Source: an uncultured Alphaproteobacteria bacterium
GTDB taxonomy: Bacteria > Pseudomonadota > Alphaproteobacteria > Rs-D84
NCBI GenBank assembly: GCA_905234185.1
Contig: CAJOGC010000002.1
Coordinates: forward strand, 103,949-167,948
Direction of reading: 5' to 3'
DNA: 64,000 bases
The translations under genes were made by a program, and so were the position numbers. Under the pieces are notes generated by a model. It did no database searches and had not been told where the DNA came from. It saw only the letters and a program-made list of their open reading frames with translations. Position 1 is the stretch's first letter; the number at the start of each line of letters is the position of its first letter. Positions 14,439 through 38,979 of the stretch are shown piece after piece.

Positions 14439-15824
14439 TTAATCCAGTGTTCTTAAACTTATTTTTTCATCATCGACAATCACCAGTTTACCGGTGTGAA
14501 TACCGAATCGGCGGGCGGAATTAAACCCGTCGCGCATACCAAATAACTGTGTATCAAACAACGATGAAACGCCACGCAATAAACATAATTGATTTGCAAC
14601 CATACTGTCATTACATACCGCGATGATTGGAATATCGGGCTTGCGACAAGAAATCTGAATCGTCGCATCTGTATCACGCGCAAAAACAACAATCGCCGAC
14701 GCATGATTTAAAAACGCCATTGACGACACCGAACGTGACCAATCGTTTTGCGGCACGTTATCAACACGCGACCAATCATATGGATTCGCAATTGTGTCGG
14801 AATCCGAAAAAGTCAAAATGCGCGCCATTGTTTCGACTGTATTAACCGGATTTACACCAACGGTTGTTTCTTCACTGGTCATTGCCGAATCGGCGCGCAG
14901 ATATGCCGTGTTCGCAACATCCGATATTTCCGCACGGGTTGGAAAATCACTTTCCACCATCGATGCCAGCATTTGCGTCGCGATTATTACCGGTTTATTC
15001 ATCATGCGACAAACACGAATTATTTTGCGAGTGATTGCCGGCACTTGCTCATACGGAACCTCTACCGCTAAATCGCCACGCGCAATCATAATACCGTCGG
15101 ACACCGACACAATTTCATCAATGCGTTCCACCGCATTTGGACGTTCAATCTTCGCAATAATTTTTATCGGGTATGCAGTGCGTCGCGCAATGAAGTCACG
15201 CACAAACGCAATGTCGGACGCCCGTTGCACAAACGATATTGCAACATAGTCCGGCCGTTTTGTGATTGCGTATTCTAAATCTTCCCGGTCCTTTGCGGTT
15301 AAAACAGATGTTGTAATTTCCGTATCCGGCAAATTAAATCCGCGTCGCGACCATATTTCCGTTCCACGAACGACGGTTGCAACGACTTTGTGTTTAGAAA
15401 CCGATTCCACACGCATTTCAATCTTGCCATCATTCAACAAAATGCGGTCATCAACATTAAGTGATTTTAGAACATCGTTGTCCGGCAAATAAACACGTTT
15501 TGAATTGCCCGGTGTTGGGTCATCATCAAATGTGAAACGCCCACCAACCTTTAATGGATAATGTTCATCAGTTTCAAAATCACCAATGCGATGTTTTGGT
15601 CCCTGAATATCAACGATTACACCAACTGGTTTTTGTAATTCAGTCGCAACATCACGAATTAAATCAATCTTGTGTCCCTGGACACGTCCGGTATCATGGC
15701 TAAAATTAATACGAAAAACATCGGCACCCGCCACAACCATATCGCGTATGGTTTTGCGTGTGTCGCTGTTTGGTCCAATAGACGCGACTATTTTAGTAAA
15801 ATTATACACTCCCTCAGACGACAT
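14439..15824 (-). CDS. pyk: pyruvate kinase
   Basis: Motifs TKIVASIGP, VFRINFSHD, IIAKIE, MIARGDL and ATQMLASM are present. The true start is ATG 15824 (MSSEGVYNF). The longer track ORF runs through the divergent DUF2312 gene. Confidence 0.9.
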   Translation of the reverse strand: MSSEGVYNFTKIVASIGPNSDTRKTIRDMVVAGADVFRINFSHDTGRVQGHKIDLIRDVATELQKPVGVIVDIQGPKHRIGDFETDEHYPLKVGGRFTFDDDPTPGNSKRVYLPDNDVLKSLNVDDRILLNDGKIEMRVESVSKHKVVATVVRGTEIWSRRGFNLPDTEITTSVLTAKDREDLEYAITKRPDYVAISFVQRASDIAFVRDFIARRTAYPIKIIAKIERPNAVERIDEIVSVSDGIMIARGDLAVEVPYEQVPAITRKIIRVCRMMNKPVIIATQMLASMVESDFPTRAEISDVANTAYLRADSAMTSEETTVGVNPVNTVETMARILTFSDSDTIANPYDWSRVDNVPQNDWSRSVSSMAFLNHASAIVVFARDTDATIQISCRKPDIPIIAVCNDSMVANQLCLLRGVSSLFDTQLFGMRDGFNSARRFGIHTGKLVIVDDEKISLRTLD

Positions 15825-15897
15825 TGATTTTTCTTTGTCTTGATTTTTCGATTTTATGATATAACATATTGCCATAACATAACAAGGGGAAAAATAC

Positions 15898-16146
15898 ATG
15901 AAAAACGCAAACCATGGTGCAATTGATAACGCACAGTTAATCAGCATTATCGAACGAATCGAAAAATTAAACGAAGAAACCGCCGCAATCGCCGCCGATA
16001 TCAAGGAAGTGTACAGCGAGGCCAAGTCCGCCGGTTTCGATCCAAAATATATTCGCCAAATGATACGTTTGCGTAAAATGGATCCAGACGAACTGGACGA
16101 AGCGGACGAATTAACACAAATGTATCGTTCTGCATTGGGGTTATAA
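15898..16146 (+). CDS. DUF2312/GapR-family nucleoid-associated protein
   Basis: QLISIIERIEKLNEE...IKEVYSEAKSAGFDPKYIRQMIRLRKMD is the characteristic DUF2312 sequence. Confidence 0.85.
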   Translation: MKNANHGAIDNAQLISIIERIEKLNEETAAIAADIKEVYSEAKSAGFDPKYIRQMIRLRKMDPDELDEADELTQMYRSALGL

Positions 16147-16460
16147 TGAAACGTTTTACAAAACGTGTTGAAGATTTTACATGCGCACATTGTGGCGCAA
16201 ATGTTTCGGGCAATGGATACACAAACCATTGCCCGAAATGCTTATATTCACGTCATGTTGATAATACACCGGGCGACCGCGCGTCGAATTGCGGTGGAAT
16301 GATGGCACCAATAAGTATTGAAAAGTCGGGAAACGATTTTATCATTACGCACCGCTGTGAAAAATGTGGCAAAACAATTCGCCAACACACCGCCGAAAAT
16401 GACGACATGGACACAATAATTTCCATTTCCACCAACGATTCGTTTGTGTTTGGAAAATAA
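16146..16460 (+). CDS. RNHCP domain-containing zinc-ribbon protein
   Basis: FTCAHCG...GYTNHCPKCLYSRHVD...NCGGMM...HRCEKCG is present. The start overlaps the stop of the DUF2312 gene by 1 nt. Confidence 0.8.
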   Translation: MKRFTKRVEDFTCAHCGANVSGNGYTNHCPKCLYSRHVDNTPGDRASNCGGMMAPISIEKSGNDFIITHRCEKCGKTIRQHTAENDDMDTIISISTNDSFVFGK

Positions 16461-16472
16461 GCACAATTTTCT

Positions 16473-16506
16473 AAAAAAAAACACCGGCAAACGCCGGTGT
16501 TTTTTT
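16473..16506. terminator. bidirectional terminator
   Basis: A9-CACCGGCaaaCGCCGGTG-T7. Confidence 0.7.
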
Positions 16507-16897
16507 ATTCCCAATAGTCATCATAATAATCCGTTTTGGTTGTTTTTTTCTTCATAACAGGGGTTGTTTTTTGTTTCGTTTTCTTCTTTTTTTCCGTATA
16601 TGCAAATTTCCATTGTTTATAACTTAATGGTGTTTTTCCTTGTTTATCACAATTTACTAAATATTTTCTGTATTTTTCTCGTTGATTTTTACGCTTTTTG
16701 TTTTCTTGTTTTCCATATTCTATACCAATAGATAGCATTGTTATTGCGAATATTACCGCAATATAACCAATAGATAATATTATCCAAAACAAAGAACGAA
16801 TGACAACATCATCTAAACTGGCAAAAGCAGGAAAAGAGCAAGTTAAAAATAAAGACACAAAAAAGATGATTTTTTTCATTTTCTTTTCCTCTTTCAT
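16505..16897 (-). CDS. small membrane protein with Lys-rich tail
   Basis: It has a signal-like N-terminus (MKKIIFFVSLFLTCSFPAFA), one further TM helix, and a strongly basic tail (KKRKNQREKYRK...KKKKTKQK...KKK). It overlaps the upstream gene by 4 nt. Confidence 0.55.
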   Translation of the reverse strand: MKEEKKMKKIIFFVSLFLTCSFPAFASLDDVVIRSLFWIILSIGYIAVIFAITMLSIGIEYGKQENKKRKNQREKYRKYLVNCDKQGKTPLSYKQWKFAYTEKKKKTKQKTTPVMKKKTTKTDYYDDYWE

Positions 16898-17489: not shown

Positions 17490-17616
17490 ACTACCCCGCC
17501 ACTTCGTGACACCCCTTCGCTCGCGAAGGGGATTTTACTTTCTGGAATCATAGCATAAATCCCCTTCACTGTGTGAAGGGGTGGATTGCGAACGTTAGTG
17601 AGAAAGACGGGGTAGT
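17490..17616 (+). repeat. PAL-A palindromic element, copy 1 (~127 bp)
   Basis: The terminal inverted repeats are CTACCCCG...CGGGGTAG. The internal hairpins are CCCCTTC..GAAGGGG x2 and a central CTGGAATCAT. Related copies lie at 25701..25835 and 27027..27100. Confidence 0.8.
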
Positions 17617-25621: not shown

Positions 25622-25700
25622 TTCGTGCTCCTTTACTTCTACGATTATAACAATATTTCGCACAACAGCAAATCTAAAAAACACCGACGCCCGCCGTCAC

Positions 25701-25835
25701 CACTACCCCGCCTCGTTCCACTCGGCACCCTTTCACTGGAGTGAAGGGGAATTAAATTATCTGGAATCATATACCAGGTAATAAAAAATCCCCTTCATTG
25801 TATGAAGGGGTGGACGCGTAGCGGACGGGGTAGTG
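25701..25835 (+). repeat. PAL-A palindromic element, copy 2
   Basis: CACTACCCCG...CGGGGTAGTG termini with internal CCCTTTCACTGGAGTGAAGGGG and CCCCTTCATTGTATGAAGGGG hairpins. Confidence 0.8.
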
Positions 25836-25883
25836 ATGAACCAGAGTGTAGCATTCCCCCTTTAACGAATACAACAAATTGGA

Positions 25884-26747
25884 TTATTCATCCACACCGT
25901 AAATAAAATCGCCTGTGCCGGAATTACCATAAAACTTCTGTCCAACAACATCCCACATGCCATTTGCCGGAACCGTATAATTACCAATCACCATACCGGC
26001 GGGGACCGGAATAAAGTGTCCCAACAAAGTATCACCATTATATATCACAACATCATACCAATTCATCGTTCGTGACCAATATTCATCCCACCACGAACCA
26101 AAAACAATTGTATCTTCACCAGTTGCGACATAATTAATATCAAATGTTTGTTTAGTTCGTTCTTTGAATTGTGCACATGTTAAATCAGGAAAAACACGTA
26201 ATAATCTTGGGGCCCTATTATTCAACGACACTATACCACTGCTATAAGTTATGTAATTTGTCCCCAAAACGTTAGGGAAGGCACTACTACTGGCAAAAAA
26301 CATTGCGCGGTCTTCATAGCCTCTTGGTGGCGTTTCTATGTGTCTGTATCCAACTGTAAAAACGACCCTGCTGGAATCCAACCAATTTACACCTGTATCT
26401 ATATTATTTAAATACCCGTTTGTTACATCGTTTTGTATTTTCAAATACACATCGTCGTCCGCACCAACCAGACAATCACCAACAAACCAATGATGCCCCA
26501 CGTGTGTCTTGGTGCCAATGCATGCACTGTATACAGCATTATCATACATAACATGCAATGTATTTGTCAGATTTTTTCGAACCATTGGTATATGATAAAC
26601 ACTGCCGTTATCGGTCATTATATTAAAAGATGGCATTCCGAACTTTTCAGCATGTGCCGGTATGGACGCATTACCAATGCGCAATGCATAGCCCCAACAA
26701 ATTGTTGGTGCCAATATCAATAAAAATATTACTAATATTTTTCTCAA
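25884..26747 (-). CDS. secreted hypothetical protein (~287 aa)
   Basis: A signal peptide is present (RKILVIFLLILAPTICWGYA). The start is uncertain: TTG 26747 is preferred because TTG 26768 lies in the U-run of the upstream terminator. The C-terminus ...GQKFYGNSGTGDFIYGVDE recalls beta-sandwich tail-fibre or lectin-like proteins, but only weakly. Confidence 0.6.
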   Translation of the reverse strand: MRKILVIFLLILAPTICWGYALRIGNASIPAHAEKFGMPSFNIMTDNGSVYHIPMVRKNLTNTLHVMYDNAVYSACIGTKTHVGHHWFVGDCLVGADDDVYLKIQNDVTNGYLNNIDTGVNWLDSSRVVFTVGYRHIETPPRGYEDRAMFFASSSAFPNVLGTNYITYSSGIVSLNNRAPRLLRVFPDLTCAQFKERTKQTFDINYVATGEDTIVFGSWWDEYWSRTMNWYDVVIYNGDTLLGHFIPVPAGMVIGNYTVPANGMWDVVGQKFYGNSGTGDFIYGVDE

Positions 26748-26765
26748 CCCCGAATTCCCCAACCG

Positions 26766-26982
26766 CAAAAAATAACCGTCAATCTGTGGACTGACGGTCG
26801 GGGTGTTCGAAAATCATATACAACAATGACCCTGTGATTTTTACACCACAGCACCCCGACCTTTTATATCGGGGTTTGGTAACGACACAAATGCGTATGA
26901 TTTCTTAAGCGATTACGGACGCACTTGCACCGGTTGTATATGGGCTTTCGACGGCCCCGAACCTGTGCCACCACAGATTCAT
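26766..26982 (-). ncRNA. candidate structured leader/attenuator RNA, copy B (unclassified)
   Basis: It lies downstream of a TTGCAT-18-TATAAT promoter. It ends in CCGTCA-gtccacagat-TGACGG + TTATTTTTT immediately 5' of the 25884 gene. Its blocks are conserved and its helices covary with copy A. Confidence 0.55.
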
Positions 26983-26987
26983 TTCTT

Positions 26988-27017
26988 ATTATAAAACATT
27001 TGGTATATTTTATGCAA
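26988..27017 (-). promoter_or_regulatory. sigma70-like promoter of leader RNA B
   Basis: On the minus strand: TTGCAT (27017..27012), an 18-nt spacer, then TATAAT (26993..26988). The 18 nt from the -10 box onward (TATAATAAGAAATGAATC) are identical to copy A. Confidence 0.6.
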
Positions 27018-27026
27018 TATTAAAAA

Positions 27027-27100
27027 CACTACCCCGTCACTTCGTGACACCCCTTCGCACGGCAAAGGGGATTTTTAGTATCTGGAATATGATTCCATAG
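27027..27100 (+). repeat. PAL-A element, truncated copy 3 (left half)
   Basis: CACTACCCCGTCACTTCGTGACACCCCTTCGCACGGCAAAGGGGATTTTTAGTATCTGGAAT... matches the left half of copies 1 and 2. Confidence 0.7.
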
Positions 27101-27104
27101 AACT

Positions 27105-27129
27105 GTCATCCCTGCGATGGATGGGAATT
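27105..27129. repeat. short palindromic repeat (GTCATCCC...GGGAAT type)
   Basis: GTCATCCCTGCGATGGATGGGAATT, related to 24872..24896. Confidence 0.6.
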
Positions 27130-27130
27130 A

Positions 27131-27176
27131 TTACTTTTTCAATTTATCGGTTATTTTATTACGCAGGATTCCCCAT
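27131..27176 (-). repeat. relic copy of the 3' end of the RND pump gene
   Basis: The minus strand reads ATGGGGAATCCTGCGTAATAAAATAACCGATAAATTGAAAAAGTAA. The true RND 3' end (27750..27712) reads ATGGAAAACCTGCGTAATAAAATAACAGGAAAGAAATAA, with an identical 18-nt core. Confidence 0.65.
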
Positions 27177-27251
27177 ACTGTTTGATAGATCTTGTGTAAG
27201 AGTATATGATGAATAACCCCATAAAAAATACCAGCATTTGCCGGTATTTTT

Positions 27252-27710
27252 TTATTTTTGTAATTCACGGCGGATGGCCATCAGGGTTTTTCCGATTCTG
27301 TTTTCGCCACTGCCGATTCCAAACCCACATTTATAGCAAACTGGGCATGCTTTTATCAAAATCGCATCGCCGGTACTTTTTAACAATTCTGCCGCGTCTG
27401 CATTTTGTTGAAACTTTGCATGCAATGCGTTTTCCATAATTTCAAATTTACGTTTATCAAAGTCCGCGCGACGATTGACTTTATATTCCGGTGTTTTTGT
27501 TATCAGACGGGCATCATCGGCATTTTTCATATTCAAAATCACATCAAAACGCGGGTCCGATGCGTAAAACTTCATTGCCTGGTAATAATGTTCCGCGGAC
27601 GGAAATACAAAATCGCGTCCATCAACATTCATTTTTATTGGGAACGATGCCAACGGTGATAAAAACCAGTATTCGCCCACTGGCGCACAAAATCGTATTT
27701 CCGTTGCCAT
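27252..27710 (-). CDS. NADAR (DUF1768/YbiA-like) family protein
   Basis: YWFLSPLASFP...FPSAEHYYQAMKF...KFEIMENALHAKFQQN...LLKSTGDAILI...GFGIGSGENRIGKTLMAIR fits the NADAR pattern. It starts 1 nt after the RND stop. Confidence 0.8.
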   Translation of the reverse strand: MATEIRFCAPVGEYWFLSPLASFPIKMNVDGRDFVFPSAEHYYQAMKFYASDPRFDVILNMKNADDARLITKTPEYKVNRRADFDKRKFEIMENALHAKFQQNADAAELLKSTGDAILIKACPVCYKCGFGIGSGENRIGKTLMAIRRELQK

Positions 27711-33314: not shown

Positions 33315-33400
33315 TGGGGTGTCGTTCCGTTTCCTCGGCTAACGCCTCGCCCGGAATGACAACGACTATGTCATGTGGATATAGTTCGTTCCAAGTTCAC
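33315..33400 (+). repeat. copy of tRNA-Gln nt 1-11 followed by PAL-C palindromic element
   Basis: TGGGGTGTCGT is identical to the first 11 nt of the tRNA. It is followed by TCCGTTTCCTCGGCTAACGCCTCGCCCGGAATGACAACGAC and 34 nt of spacer. Confidence 0.75.
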
Positions 33401-33474
33401 TGGGGTGTCGTCTAATGGTAGGACAAGAGATTTTGGTTCTCTTTATCATGGTTCGAATCCGTGCGCCCCAACCA
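33401..33474 (+). tRNA. tRNA-Gln (anticodon TTG)
   Basis: Manual cloverleaf: acceptor TGGGGTG/CGCCCCA, D arm GTCT-AATGGTA-GGAC, anticodon arm AGAGA-TTTTGGT-TCTCT, T arm CATGG-TTCGAAT-CCGTG, and an encoded ACCA. Confidence 0.9.
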
Positions 33475-34358: not shown

Positions 34359-34368
34359 ATTGCCACAC

Positions 34369-34498
34369 GGTCCCATCGTTCCGTTCCCTCGCTCCGCTCG
34401 CCCGGAATGACAACGACGACGGGACGATAGACGGTCCCATCGTTCCGTTCCCTCGCTCCGCTCGCCCGGAATGACAACGACGACGGGACGACATAGAC
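34369..34498 (+). repeat. tandem 64/66-bp units: tRNA-Glu nt 1-11 + PAL-C palindromic element, x2
   Basis: Each unit is GGTCCCATCGT + TCCGTTCCCTCGCTCCGCTCGCCCGGAATGACAACGACGACGGGACG(A/ACA)TAGAC, at 34369..34432 and 34433..34498. The intact tRNA follows directly. Confidence 0.85.
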
Positions 34499-34573
34499 GG
34501 TCCCATCGTCTAGCGGTTAGGACATCGGATTCTCATTCCGGTAACATGGGTTCGATTCCCATTGGGACTGCCA
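34499..34573 (+). tRNA. tRNA-Glu (anticodon CTC)
   Basis: Manual cloverleaf: acceptor GGTCCCA/TGGGACT (G1-U72 wobble), D arm GTCT-AGCGGTTA-GGAC, anticodon arm TCGGA-TTCTCAT-TCCGG, T arm ATGGG-TTCGATT-CCCAT, and an encoded GCCA. Confidence 0.9.
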
Positions 34574-34664
34574 AATTTTGTTATTATGCACAATTAAGAA
34601 ATTTGAATATCATATTTTTGTAATGTAATTTTTATAAAAAACACCGGTAAAAGCCGGCGTTTTT

Positions 34665-35228
34665 TTACCTTTTTGGCGTTACAAAATAAATATCCGCTAC
34701 ACGTGGCGGGATTTCGATATTTTTTGAATCATAAATATACTTTTCCCCGGCTTTTTTTATCGCTATTTCACCAATACCGACTCCGGTTTCATTTTTACCA
34801 CGACTATCGTTTTGATGTGGATAACGCGTACTGTCAATAACACGCATTTGAAAACTATCCATATCACAACGCATAATTTTATCAACAAACATACAGTGCC
34901 CATTACCATCGGGAAACACCACAACTAAAATACAATTTTCTGTGGGTTGATTGGTGAATTGCCAATACTTAAAATCATCTGCGTGTTCATGTATAAACGC
35001 AAAGTCTTTACAAAACAGGCGATTTATCTTTATAAAATTATGTTTTCGCAGAAACGCACGCACTTCGACCAATGCGCGTTTATACCCCGATTGTTCAAGA
35101 CACCAATAAACAAAACCACTGCAATCCATATAAAAAAATCGTCGATCATCAATCAAATCTATTCGATTATCATGACTGTATTCAGATTGAAAATCATTGG
35201 TCAAAAATTTTTTGATAAAATCGTTCAT
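34665..35228 (-). CDS. NlpC/P60-like cysteine peptidase-fold protein without signal peptide
   Basis: A catalytic-type block (FYMDCSGFVYWCLEQSG) and a later His block (GNGHCMFV) are present. The start is moved to ATG 35228 (MNDFIKKF) because the track N-terminus translates the flanking terminator hairpin. Confidence 0.6.
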   Translation of the reverse strand: MNDFIKKFLTNDFQSEYSHDNRIDLIDDRRFFYMDCSGFVYWCLEQSGYKRALVEVRAFLRKHNFIKINRLFCKDFAFIHEHADDFKYWQFTNQPTENCILVVVFPDGNGHCMFVDKIMRCDMDSFQMRVIDSTRYPHQNDSRGKNETGVGIGEIAIKKAGEKYIYDSKNIEIPPRVADIYFVTPKR

Positions 35229-35276
35229 TTTATATTCCCAAAAAAACACCGGTAAAAGCCGGCGTTTTTTCATTTA

Positions 35277-38876: not shown

Positions 38877-38979
38877 TACGGTAAAACCCAAAACGGTTTT
38901 TATAAAAAATCCGGCAATCGCCGGTTTTTTATTTATAATAAAATCTTAAAATAAATGGGGCAAATGCCCCATTTCCAAT

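Follow-up and report, generated by a model that had tools for sequence, protein, structure and literature searches.

The DNA stretch analysed here, which we call the window (64,000 nucleotides), carries on its minus strand a non-coding region (positions 26766-27017) immediately upstream of a gene encoding a putative surface protein, and a similar region (copy A) is located elsewhere in the window. An earlier note had interpreted both regions as copies of a covarying leader RNA, in which one segment may pair with either of two partners ahead of a terminator. This locus thus raises the question of whether the region (copy B) encodes a conserved RNA and whether such an RNA might control transcription of the gene that follows.

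Parts and fold of copy B

We found that copy B is one copy of an uncatalogued folded RNA of about 210 nt, which lies between a promoter and a terminator and precedes a cell-surface gene. Its parts, together with the second copy, are the following:

26766-27017, minus strand: region of the copy B leader, whole feature
26988..26993, minus strand: -10 box TATAAT, an exact hexamer; transcription predicted to begin at the foot of P1, about 7 nt downstream
26959..26980, minus strand: P1 hairpin GAAUCUGUG-GUGG-CACAGGUUC, from the minimum-energy fold and both-side changes in the family (helices 1-4); the terminator loop has its complement in the 5' strand and loop of P1
26953..26958, minus strand: G1 run GGGG plus CC (GGGGCC); C26953 is in a lone covarying pair with G26831
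26945..26951, minus strand: P2a 5' strand UCGAAAG, from covariation and multi-base compensations
26933..26942, minus strand: P2b 5' strand CAUAUACAAC, from own-partner preference and family pairs (helices 6-7)
26883..26932, minus strand: P3 hairpin CGGUGCAAGUGCGU...ACGCAUUUGUGUCG, the CGGTGC stem of the earlier note, from fold and covariation
26869..26875, minus strand: segment 1 (C1) ACCCCGA, which forms hairpin P4 (helix 11) with segment 2
26852..26861, minus strand: segment 2 (G2) GGUCGGGGUG, partner of segment 1 or segment 3
26832..26851, minus strand: P5 hairpin CUGUGGU-guaaaa-AUCACAG, immediately adjoining segment 2, from fold and covariation
26831..26831, minus strand: G26831, first base after P5, in a lone tertiary pair with C26953
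26815-26824, minus strand: 3' strand of P2b GUUGUAUAUG, from fold and covariation
26807-26813, minus strand: 3' strand of P2a UUUUCGA, from fold and covariation
26796..26805, minus strand: segment 3 (C2) CACCCCGACC, which pairs with segment 2, or with its CCCC part to G1
26774-26799 (hairpin) and 26766-26773 (U-tract), minus strand: intrinsic terminator, from the terminator scan and a covarying stem (helix 13)
25884..26760, minus strand: cargo gene of copy B with its SD (GGGGAA, 26755-26760), TTG start at 26747, 287 aa
17195..17415 (about), minus strand: copy A, same RNA family by fold, motif and profile match

The folding energy of copy B was -92.8 kcal/mol, as compared with -57.7 ± 4.5 kcal/mol for shuffled sequences (z = -7.85), and none of 200 shuffles folded as well. 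Copy A exhibited the same architecture with a folding energy of -91.4 kcal/mol (z = -8.40). The window contains the motif GTTCGGG..GTNGAAAGNCC at two sites only (0 expected), and an nhmmer profile recovered copy A (E = 1.4e-47), copy B (E = 2.1e-41) and no third copy.

Most of the anatomy described in the earlier note was recovered. The 18 nt from the -10 box onward (TATAATAAGAAATGAATC) are identical in the two copies, and the coordinates given for segment 1, segment 2 (GGTCGGGGTG) and segment 3 are exact. When checked on the minus strand, segments 1 and 2 form a perfect 7-bp hairpin (1:2) and segments 2 and 3 a perfect 10-bp helix (2:3). At the site where a terminator had been claimed, the terminator scan recovered GACCGTCAGTCCACAGATTGACGGTT with the tail ATTTTTTG (11-pair stem, 4-nt loop), which is a G+C-rich hairpin directly followed by a U-tract, and the last ACC of segment 3 constitutes the base of its stem. 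The sequence AATCTGTGG (26971-26979) is, as proposed, exactly complementary to CCACAGATT in the terminator loop. In contrast to the short loop that had been assigned to the CGGTGC stem of copy B, the fold and the family alignment indicate a 50-nt hairpin (P3), in which CGGUGCAAGUGCGU pairs with ACGCAUUUGUGUCG. This length is about equal to that of P3 in copy A and the argument drawn from a hairpin of variable length is wrong for copy B. The earlier note had also overlooked the long-range helix P2, which is dominant in copy B and joins UCGAAAG-CC-CAUAUACAAC (26933-26951) to GUUGUAUAUG-A-UUUUCGA (26807-26824).

The gene following copy B starts with TTG 19 nt past the terminator (gene call in locus L001) and encodes a 287-aa protein with a signal-peptide-like N terminus (MRKILVIFLLILAPT...). 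This protein gave no match in Pfam or PHROG.

A family of covarying leaders in gut and rumen bacteria

Relatives were collected by scanning one genome per species with the exact pattern GATTTTCNAACNCCCCGACC, which yielded 101 stretches with the conserved blocks, most of them true relatives by profile search. A metagenome scan anchored at the other end of the RNA added 48 stretches holding the conserved blocks. The 3' block, for which the metagenome copies had not been selected, matched exactly in 23 of 33 cases, and of the remaining 10, 7 had one mismatch; segment 3 is almost invariant even among relatives not chosen for it. An nhmmer search over all stretches gave 145 matches, corresponding to 114 unique full-length copies, and some 8-kb loci contained two copies. 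For the family tests, nhmmer and anchor-based procedures were used; they were carried out on an alignment of 73 sequences (A2) and on a second set of 114 sequences, and the counts for the 2:3 helix refer to 110 copies.

The hosts are nearly all metagenome-assembled genomes (MAGs) of gut and rumen Alphaproteobacteria (Candidatus Enterousia, 'uncultured Azospirillum' or Rickettsiales, RGIG and RUG bins), and several MAGs carry five or more leader copies. Candidatus Enterousia, which has no cultured member, belongs to the order Rs-D84, whose genomes are mostly smaller than 1 Mb (PMC12306168).

An Rfam scan had been suggested in the earlier note together with the homolog collection. With Rfam 15 (4227 models), only two tRNAs scored above the gathering threshold in the whole window, and among 18 other family members only tRNAs elsewhere in those loci were found. 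Permissive scans of copy B and of the relative L017 yielded no match above 31 bits and none above 27 bits over the RNA itself. Three collections of phages, plasmids and viral contigs contained no similar DNA. In the literature we found no description of this RNA, which may be an unnamed entry in a big candidate-RNA catalogue. We conclude that the leader family is real and so far uncatalogued, and it is strongly supported as a structured RNA.

A nested model of P1, GGGG:CCCC, P2a, P2b, P3, P4 (the 1:2 pairing), P5 and the terminator was evaluated on alignment A2. Over the 73 sequences, 89.5% of cells were paired as compared with 78.2% after shuffling (0 of 500 shuffles as high), and when the partners were slid the paired fraction was just 39-51%. 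Changes on both sides were observed in 45 of the 66 pairs, and compensatory changes support the hairpins P1, P3 (helix 8, 9 of 10 pairs with both-side changes) and P5 (helix 12, 7 of 7) as well as the terminator stem, where L140 and L121 compensate a C-to-U change in CCCCGACU with GCAGU on the 3' side. For P2a, an alignment-independent comparison of the variable base in GU[N]GAAAG with that in UUUUC[N]AAC gave C-G in 60, A-U in 9 and G-C in 4 cases. Rare variants in the second family copies of loci L054, L098 and L038 carry multi-base compensations of the same helix (UCACAG/UUGUGA, UACCAAG/UUUGGUA, UCGUAAG/UUUACGA). P2b strands paired better with their own partner (-9.8 kcal/mol) than with foreign ones (-2.3 kcal/mol; median rank 0.000). 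The predicted GGGG:CCCC helix, which closes P2 in the minimum-energy fold (helix 5), is invariant across the family.

A further element is a lone pair, C26953:G26831 in copy B, which joins the base after GGGGC to the first base after P5 and lies 1 nt before P2a. At the corresponding columns of A2 (64:310) we found U-A in 65 and C-G in 8 sequences, so that 73 of 73 are paired, and in the alignment of 114 sequences there were 104 U-A, 8 C-G and 2 U.G. The scan of all column pairs was too permissive, since G-U combinations dominate it, and it served only to spot this lone pair.

G.U pairs were tolerated on the leader strand only (columns 72:331, G.U in 72 of 73; columns 214:247, C-G in 36 and U.G in 34), and this one-sided tolerance points to RNA rather than DNA. 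It bears on the possibility that the conserved unit acts as DNA, i.e. as the end of a mobile element, as a MITE or as a recombination site that shuffles surface-gene cassettes. For such an element speaks a strain polymorphism, in which a cassette of about 1.5 kb with copy B is missing from the otherwise matching contigs L003 (1250-1330) and L004. In these contigs, which encode an identical peptide deformylase, the NADAR and HAD genes are 82 nt apart, whereas about 1.57 kb separate them in the window (25685-27251). The inserted sequence holds a half repeat, the promoter, leader B, the 287-aa gene and a full repeat, and the 125-131-nt repeats that flank the cassette have terminal inverted repeats. 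However, these repeats lie outside the RNA and are absent from most relatives; they account for the similarity of about 70 nt upstream of both leader promoters. The RNA itself has no terminal inverted repeats, as a MITE would, and the phage, plasmid and viral collections provided no match. Because the helices covary, we consider a DNA element highly improbable as the main function, and the RNA is not a mobile-element end, which the earlier note had named as an alternative identity.

The MITE-like repeats are located at 17491-17615 and 25703-25833, with a half copy at 27029-27095; their ends are inverted repeats of 8 nt (CTACCCCG...CGGGGTAG), and two CCCCTTC..GAAGGGG hairpins lie inside. Other repeats were also seen in the window. 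A terminator-like palindrome (AAAAAACACCGGC-AAAC-GCCGGTGTTTTTTT) is present in five copies that are 72-100% alike (16469-16507, 27216-27254, 34629-34667, 35234-35272, 38896-38934). It is flanked by A-runs and T-runs and could work in both directions, and weak Rfam matches to STnc430 and BSnc120 near 27200 stem from its hairpin. A 61-nt sequence occurs in two identical copies 64 nt apart (34367-34491) just upstream of the tRNA at 34499-34570, and its 21-nt core recurs at 33346-33366 upstream of the tRNA at 33401-33471. In addition, the minus-strand reading frame 14439-16229 (596 aa) carries a pyruvate kinase barrel domain only from residue 145, and its N-terminal extension gave a weak PAN-domain match (E = 0.0036).

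The covarying positions also bear on a trp-type attenuator controlled by a leader peptide. In copy B an ATG (26981-26983, minus strand) opens MNLWWHRFGAVESPYTTGASASVIA with two adjacent Trp codons, and copies A and B share an in-frame ..AVESP.. with differences at third codon positions. These apparently synonymous differences, however, coincide exactly with the positions that are compensated in P2a and in the lone pair. An in-frame ATG was found in just 32 of 73 members, and any start codon is missing in 28 of 73; the peptides are between 11 and more than 80 aa long and share no conserved residues beyond AVES. The short 5' reading frame is thus not conserved in the 73 members, which refutes an attenuator of the trp or his type and leaves this explanation with virtually no probability.

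Alternative pairings at the terminator

Segment 2 covaries with both of its partners. For its pairing with segment 3 (GGGG[N]G : AAC[N]CCCC), we observed U-A in 24, A-U in 23, G.U in 20, G-C in 3 and U.G in 3 sequences, and thus 73 of 73 can pair. For its pairing with segment 1, the variants CCCCAA/UUGGGG and CCUCGG/CCGGGG as well as extended stems were found. Two metagenome copies that are nearly identical to each other (L151 and L139) have changes in all three segments at once (CCCCGG / GGCCGGGG / CCCCGGCC). As both pairings use segment 2, they are mutually exclusive.

In 103 of 110 copies the 2:3 helix runs without interruption for 9-13 bp. Its overlap with the terminator stem amounts to 2 nt or more (A and the first C of ...GACC) in 103 of 110 and to 3 nt or more (ACC) in 63 of 110, and the nucleotides taken are those of the bottom stem pairs beside the U-tract. 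Comparing the 5' flank of segment 2 with the variable terminator positions, we detected no covariation of a 2:3 extension beyond the invariant ACC. Because 2:3 covers the bottom of the terminator stem, the order of an anti-antiterminator (1:2), an antiterminator (2:3) and a terminator holds on anatomy.

The 1:2 and 2:3 pairings and the terminator of the earlier note stood. Since P2a/P2b crosses 2:3, however, the RNA is pseudoknotted or bistable rather than a plain three-hairpin attenuator. RNAalifold alone selected 2:3 and missed P2, whereas folding of single sequences selected P2 and 1:2, and each method by itself captured just a part of the structure. Forcing 2:3 in nested thermodynamic models cost about 10 kcal/mol, and a state in which 2:3 forms would therefore need a pseudoknotted fold or kinetic control. 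Walking along the strands closes a four-arm junction: it runs from the first pair of P2a over an A to the last pair of 2:3 and the first pair of P5, and continues via the lone pair and one G back to P2a, with linkers of 0-1 nt. Because the lone pair covaries and the junction closes, we think that a pseudoknotted fold accommodates 2:3 and P2 together with P5 and the lone pair. Such a fold would pull tight the 6-9 nt that link P5 to the 3' strand of P2b.

The complementarity between P1 and the terminator loop (AAUCUGUGG/CCACAGAUU) turned out to be a family-wide trait. P1 paired with its own terminator loop at -9.2 kcal/mol versus -6.6 kcal/mol with foreign loops (median rank 0.17), whereas a control region had no own-partner preference (rank 0.54). 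This signal sits in the top of P1, and tests of strands only (P1 5' strand against terminator 3' strand, and the reverse) gave no own-partner preference. The partner site in P1 varies among members and may be the 5' strand, the loop or the 3' strand. Before the 3' strand of the terminator exists, the minimum-energy folds of copies A, B and L017 open P1, which pairs instead with the loop and the 5' strand of the terminator; the global energy optimum of full-length L017 is a long 5'-3' helix. The terminator loop was also considered as an anti-Shine-Dalgarno sequence. Here, own (-5.10 kcal/mol) and foreign (-4.94 kcal/mol) partners did not differ in preference (rank 0.49), and this role was rejected because the loop does not covary with the SD region.

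The nearest precedent for the pairing of P1 with the terminator loop is the corrinoid (cobalamin) riboswitch, in which the sensor loop L5 kisses the expression-platform loop L13 and thereby decides between terminator and antiterminator (PMC10653944). Unlike that system, the partner in the leader is the loop of the terminator hairpin itself, the sensor side is the 5'-most hairpin P1, and the pairing comprises 6-9 bp and shifts along P1 between members. The Rfam Cobalamin model did not match the window or the 18 other members.

Downstream genes and the proposed switch

The position of the RNA relative to promoters and genes is well defined in the family. In 51 of 73 members a -10-like hexamer (5 or 6 of 6 matches to TATAAT) ends at most 12 nt upstream of P1, in 48 of these at a distance of 5-8 nt, and an upstream TG is present in 30 of 73. 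Because the -10 box ends just upstream of P1, the RNA should start at about +1. A same-strand open reading frame of at least 70 aa, starting within 100 nt of segment 3, follows 58 of the 73 copies, and the median distance of its start beyond segment 3 (CCCCGACC) is 47 nt. This gap offers too little room for a promoter of the cargo gene itself, and in the absence of a separate promoter the cargo genes must be transcribed through the terminator.

Signal-peptide-like N termini were detected in 44 of the 58 cargo proteins (about 76%) by a crude hydropathy test. Most cargo proteins gave no Pfam match; those that did included glycosyltransferases (GT2 in six cases, GT8, GT1, GT9), Stealth, pyruvyl transferase, sulfatase and Listeria-Bacteroides repeats. 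Further members of this mixed cargo are two DNA methylases as well as small proteins that lack a signal-peptide-like N terminus. PHROGs yielded glycosyltransferases and methylases only, with no tail fibres despite N-terminal TSKNYVD..ATKQ motifs. Most cargo consists of single short genes and not of long operons, and its context suggests no obvious ligand. A conserved, covarying leader with alternative 1:2 and 2:3 pairing, a terminator, a 5' end complementary to the loop of that terminator, and unrelated cargo, as initially proposed from the two copies in the window, holds over 73-114 relatives.

The cargo genes have additional sequence peculiarities. Homopolymer runs are located in the SD region of many of them, such as T11 G8 before the start codon in L008 and G6 runs in L006, L030, L037, L067, L079, L088 and L101; such runs could vary by slipped-strand mispairing and toggle surface proteins on and off. 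In L034 and L016 the terminator is directly followed by runs of GTTAGTG-like heptamers, which occur in some members with a more distant ORF start.

Like riboswitches and attenuators, the RNA is a promoter-proximal structured 5' leader with an intrinsic terminator just before the regulated gene, and one of its segments has two possible partners, with one pairing overlapping the terminator stem. It combines a conserved, covarying structured domain in the 5' UTR with an expression platform whose alternative pairing overlaps the sensor domain at segment 2. Unlike those systems, it has no known aptamer, ligand or leader peptide, its antiterminator 2:3 crosses P2, which would give a pseudoknotted four-arm ON fold, and the overlap with the terminator concerns only the bottom 2-6 nt. 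Riboswitches for c-di-GMP (GEMM-I/II) occur in many copies per genome before unrelated genes for adhesins, surface and secreted proteins. The leader is similarly multicopy and precedes unrelated genes for surface and secreted proteins, but its architecture is different and Rfam indicated no match in sequence or structure.

Taken together, we consider it probable (about 0.6) that the family is a riboswitch-like, cis-acting transcription attenuator for cell-envelope genes. From its anatomy we infer regulated termination, the identity of the ON state and the existence of an effector. Each copy would constitute a module of its own promoter, a folded RNA at or beside +1, an intrinsic terminator and an envelope gene. 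In the OFF state, segments 1 and 2 would pair to hairpin P4 and leave segment 3 free apart from the short GGGG:CCCC closure of P2; the terminator could then form completely and transcription would stop. In the ON state, 2:3 would take the A and C (often ACC or ACCG) at the base of the terminator stem near the U-tract and would abut P5, P2a and the lone pair within the pseudoknotted four-arm junction. The terminator would thereby be disabled, and RNA polymerase would enter the gene. A candidate effector, which may be a small molecule, an ion or a protein, would set the balance between the two states at the conserved junction core. By pairing with the terminator loop, the top of P1 may link the 5' end of the RNA to the choice between termination and read-through, in favour of either outcome.

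The same anatomy could belong to a multicopy gene for a free-standing sRNA, the terminator of which is constitutive and the product of which (about 210 nt) is stable and acts in trans, its position before cargo genes being secondary. The CCCC segments of such an sRNA might pair with G-run SDs of envelope-gene mRNAs, or the RNA might titrate a protein. The RNA has its own promoter and a good terminator, and full-length L017, at minimum energy, folds into a closed 5'-3' helix of the kind typical of stable RNAs. SDs with a run of GGGG or longer precede 27 of 58 cargo genes as compared with 4 of 38 long ORFs of the window, although start calls were naive. Moreover, among the Rfam models that stayed below threshold, the one scoring highest over the 3' domain (segment 2, P5, segment 3) in both copies tested is an sRNA, namely sRNA-Xcc1 (RF02221), which lies in integron cassettes of Xanthomonas ahead of symE (bioRxiv 10.1101/2025.06.18.660453). 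The scores were 26.9 bits (copy B, 26789-26860) and 21.2 bits (L017, 2493-2570) versus a gathering score of 53 for a model of 87 positions. Both RNAs have a G-rich/C-rich outer helix (GGCCGGGG...CCCCGGCC-like) around two hairpins and precede a gene in a mobile cassette. In contrast, the match spans about 70 of the roughly 210 nt of the leader, and the second inner hairpin of sRNA-Xcc1 corresponds to the 3' strand of P2b, which pairs elsewhere. The 3' domain may be distantly related to sRNA-Xcc1. A free-standing sRNA, however, does not account for the 58 of 73 copies that are followed by a same-strand ORF within 100 nt of segment 3 and lack room for a promoter. The C-rich segments sit in stems and not in loops, the alternative 1:2 and 2:3 pairing over the terminator would have no role, and the SD regions do not covary with the terminator loop. 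For these reasons, we regard an sRNA gene as unlikely.

EAR (the epsC motif) and JUMPStart/ops are leaders before surface-polysaccharide genes that control terminator read-through; they are short elements or act through NusG paralogues. They suggest another explanation, according to which the leader is a processive antitermination RNA of the HK022 put or Bacillus EAR type that would bind and modify RNA polymerase to pass this terminator and later ones inside envelope or polysaccharide operons. Such an RNA would be promoter-proximal, highly structured and multicopy, with unrelated cargo and a terminator to be passed, as is the case here, and the cargo is enriched in polysaccharide enzymes, as for EAR and JUMPStart/ops. 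In contrast to these elements, the leader has no Rfam match to the epsC/EAR family or to any other, and its cargo is mostly single short genes. Processive antitermination also leaves the exclusive use of segment 2 and the pairing of the terminator loop unexplained, and we consider it quite improbable.

Within the preferred reading of a cis-acting attenuator, a more specific version can be put forward tentatively, at somewhat less than even odds. The family might be a new riboswitch class with a pseudoknotted four-arm junction core and a terminator loop wired to P1, which senses an envelope precursor, a host-derived cue or a second messenger and switches the repertoire of surface proteins and glycans. 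If this is true, the signal sensed would be one not so far tied to RNA control, and the RNA would be a master switch in genome-reduced uncultured gut Alphaproteobacteria (order Rs-D84 and relatives).

For RNA biology, the family would add a large orphan class with unusually clear evidence of two exclusive pairings by one segment, a pseudoknotted junction and a terminator loop in a conserved long-range pairing. With 114 sequences, a structure and exact search patterns, it is ready for curation. If the leader is a sensor, it would probably be the main control of surface presentation in the gut for Candidatus Enterousia, and it would make a lineage without cultivable members accessible to in vitro work.
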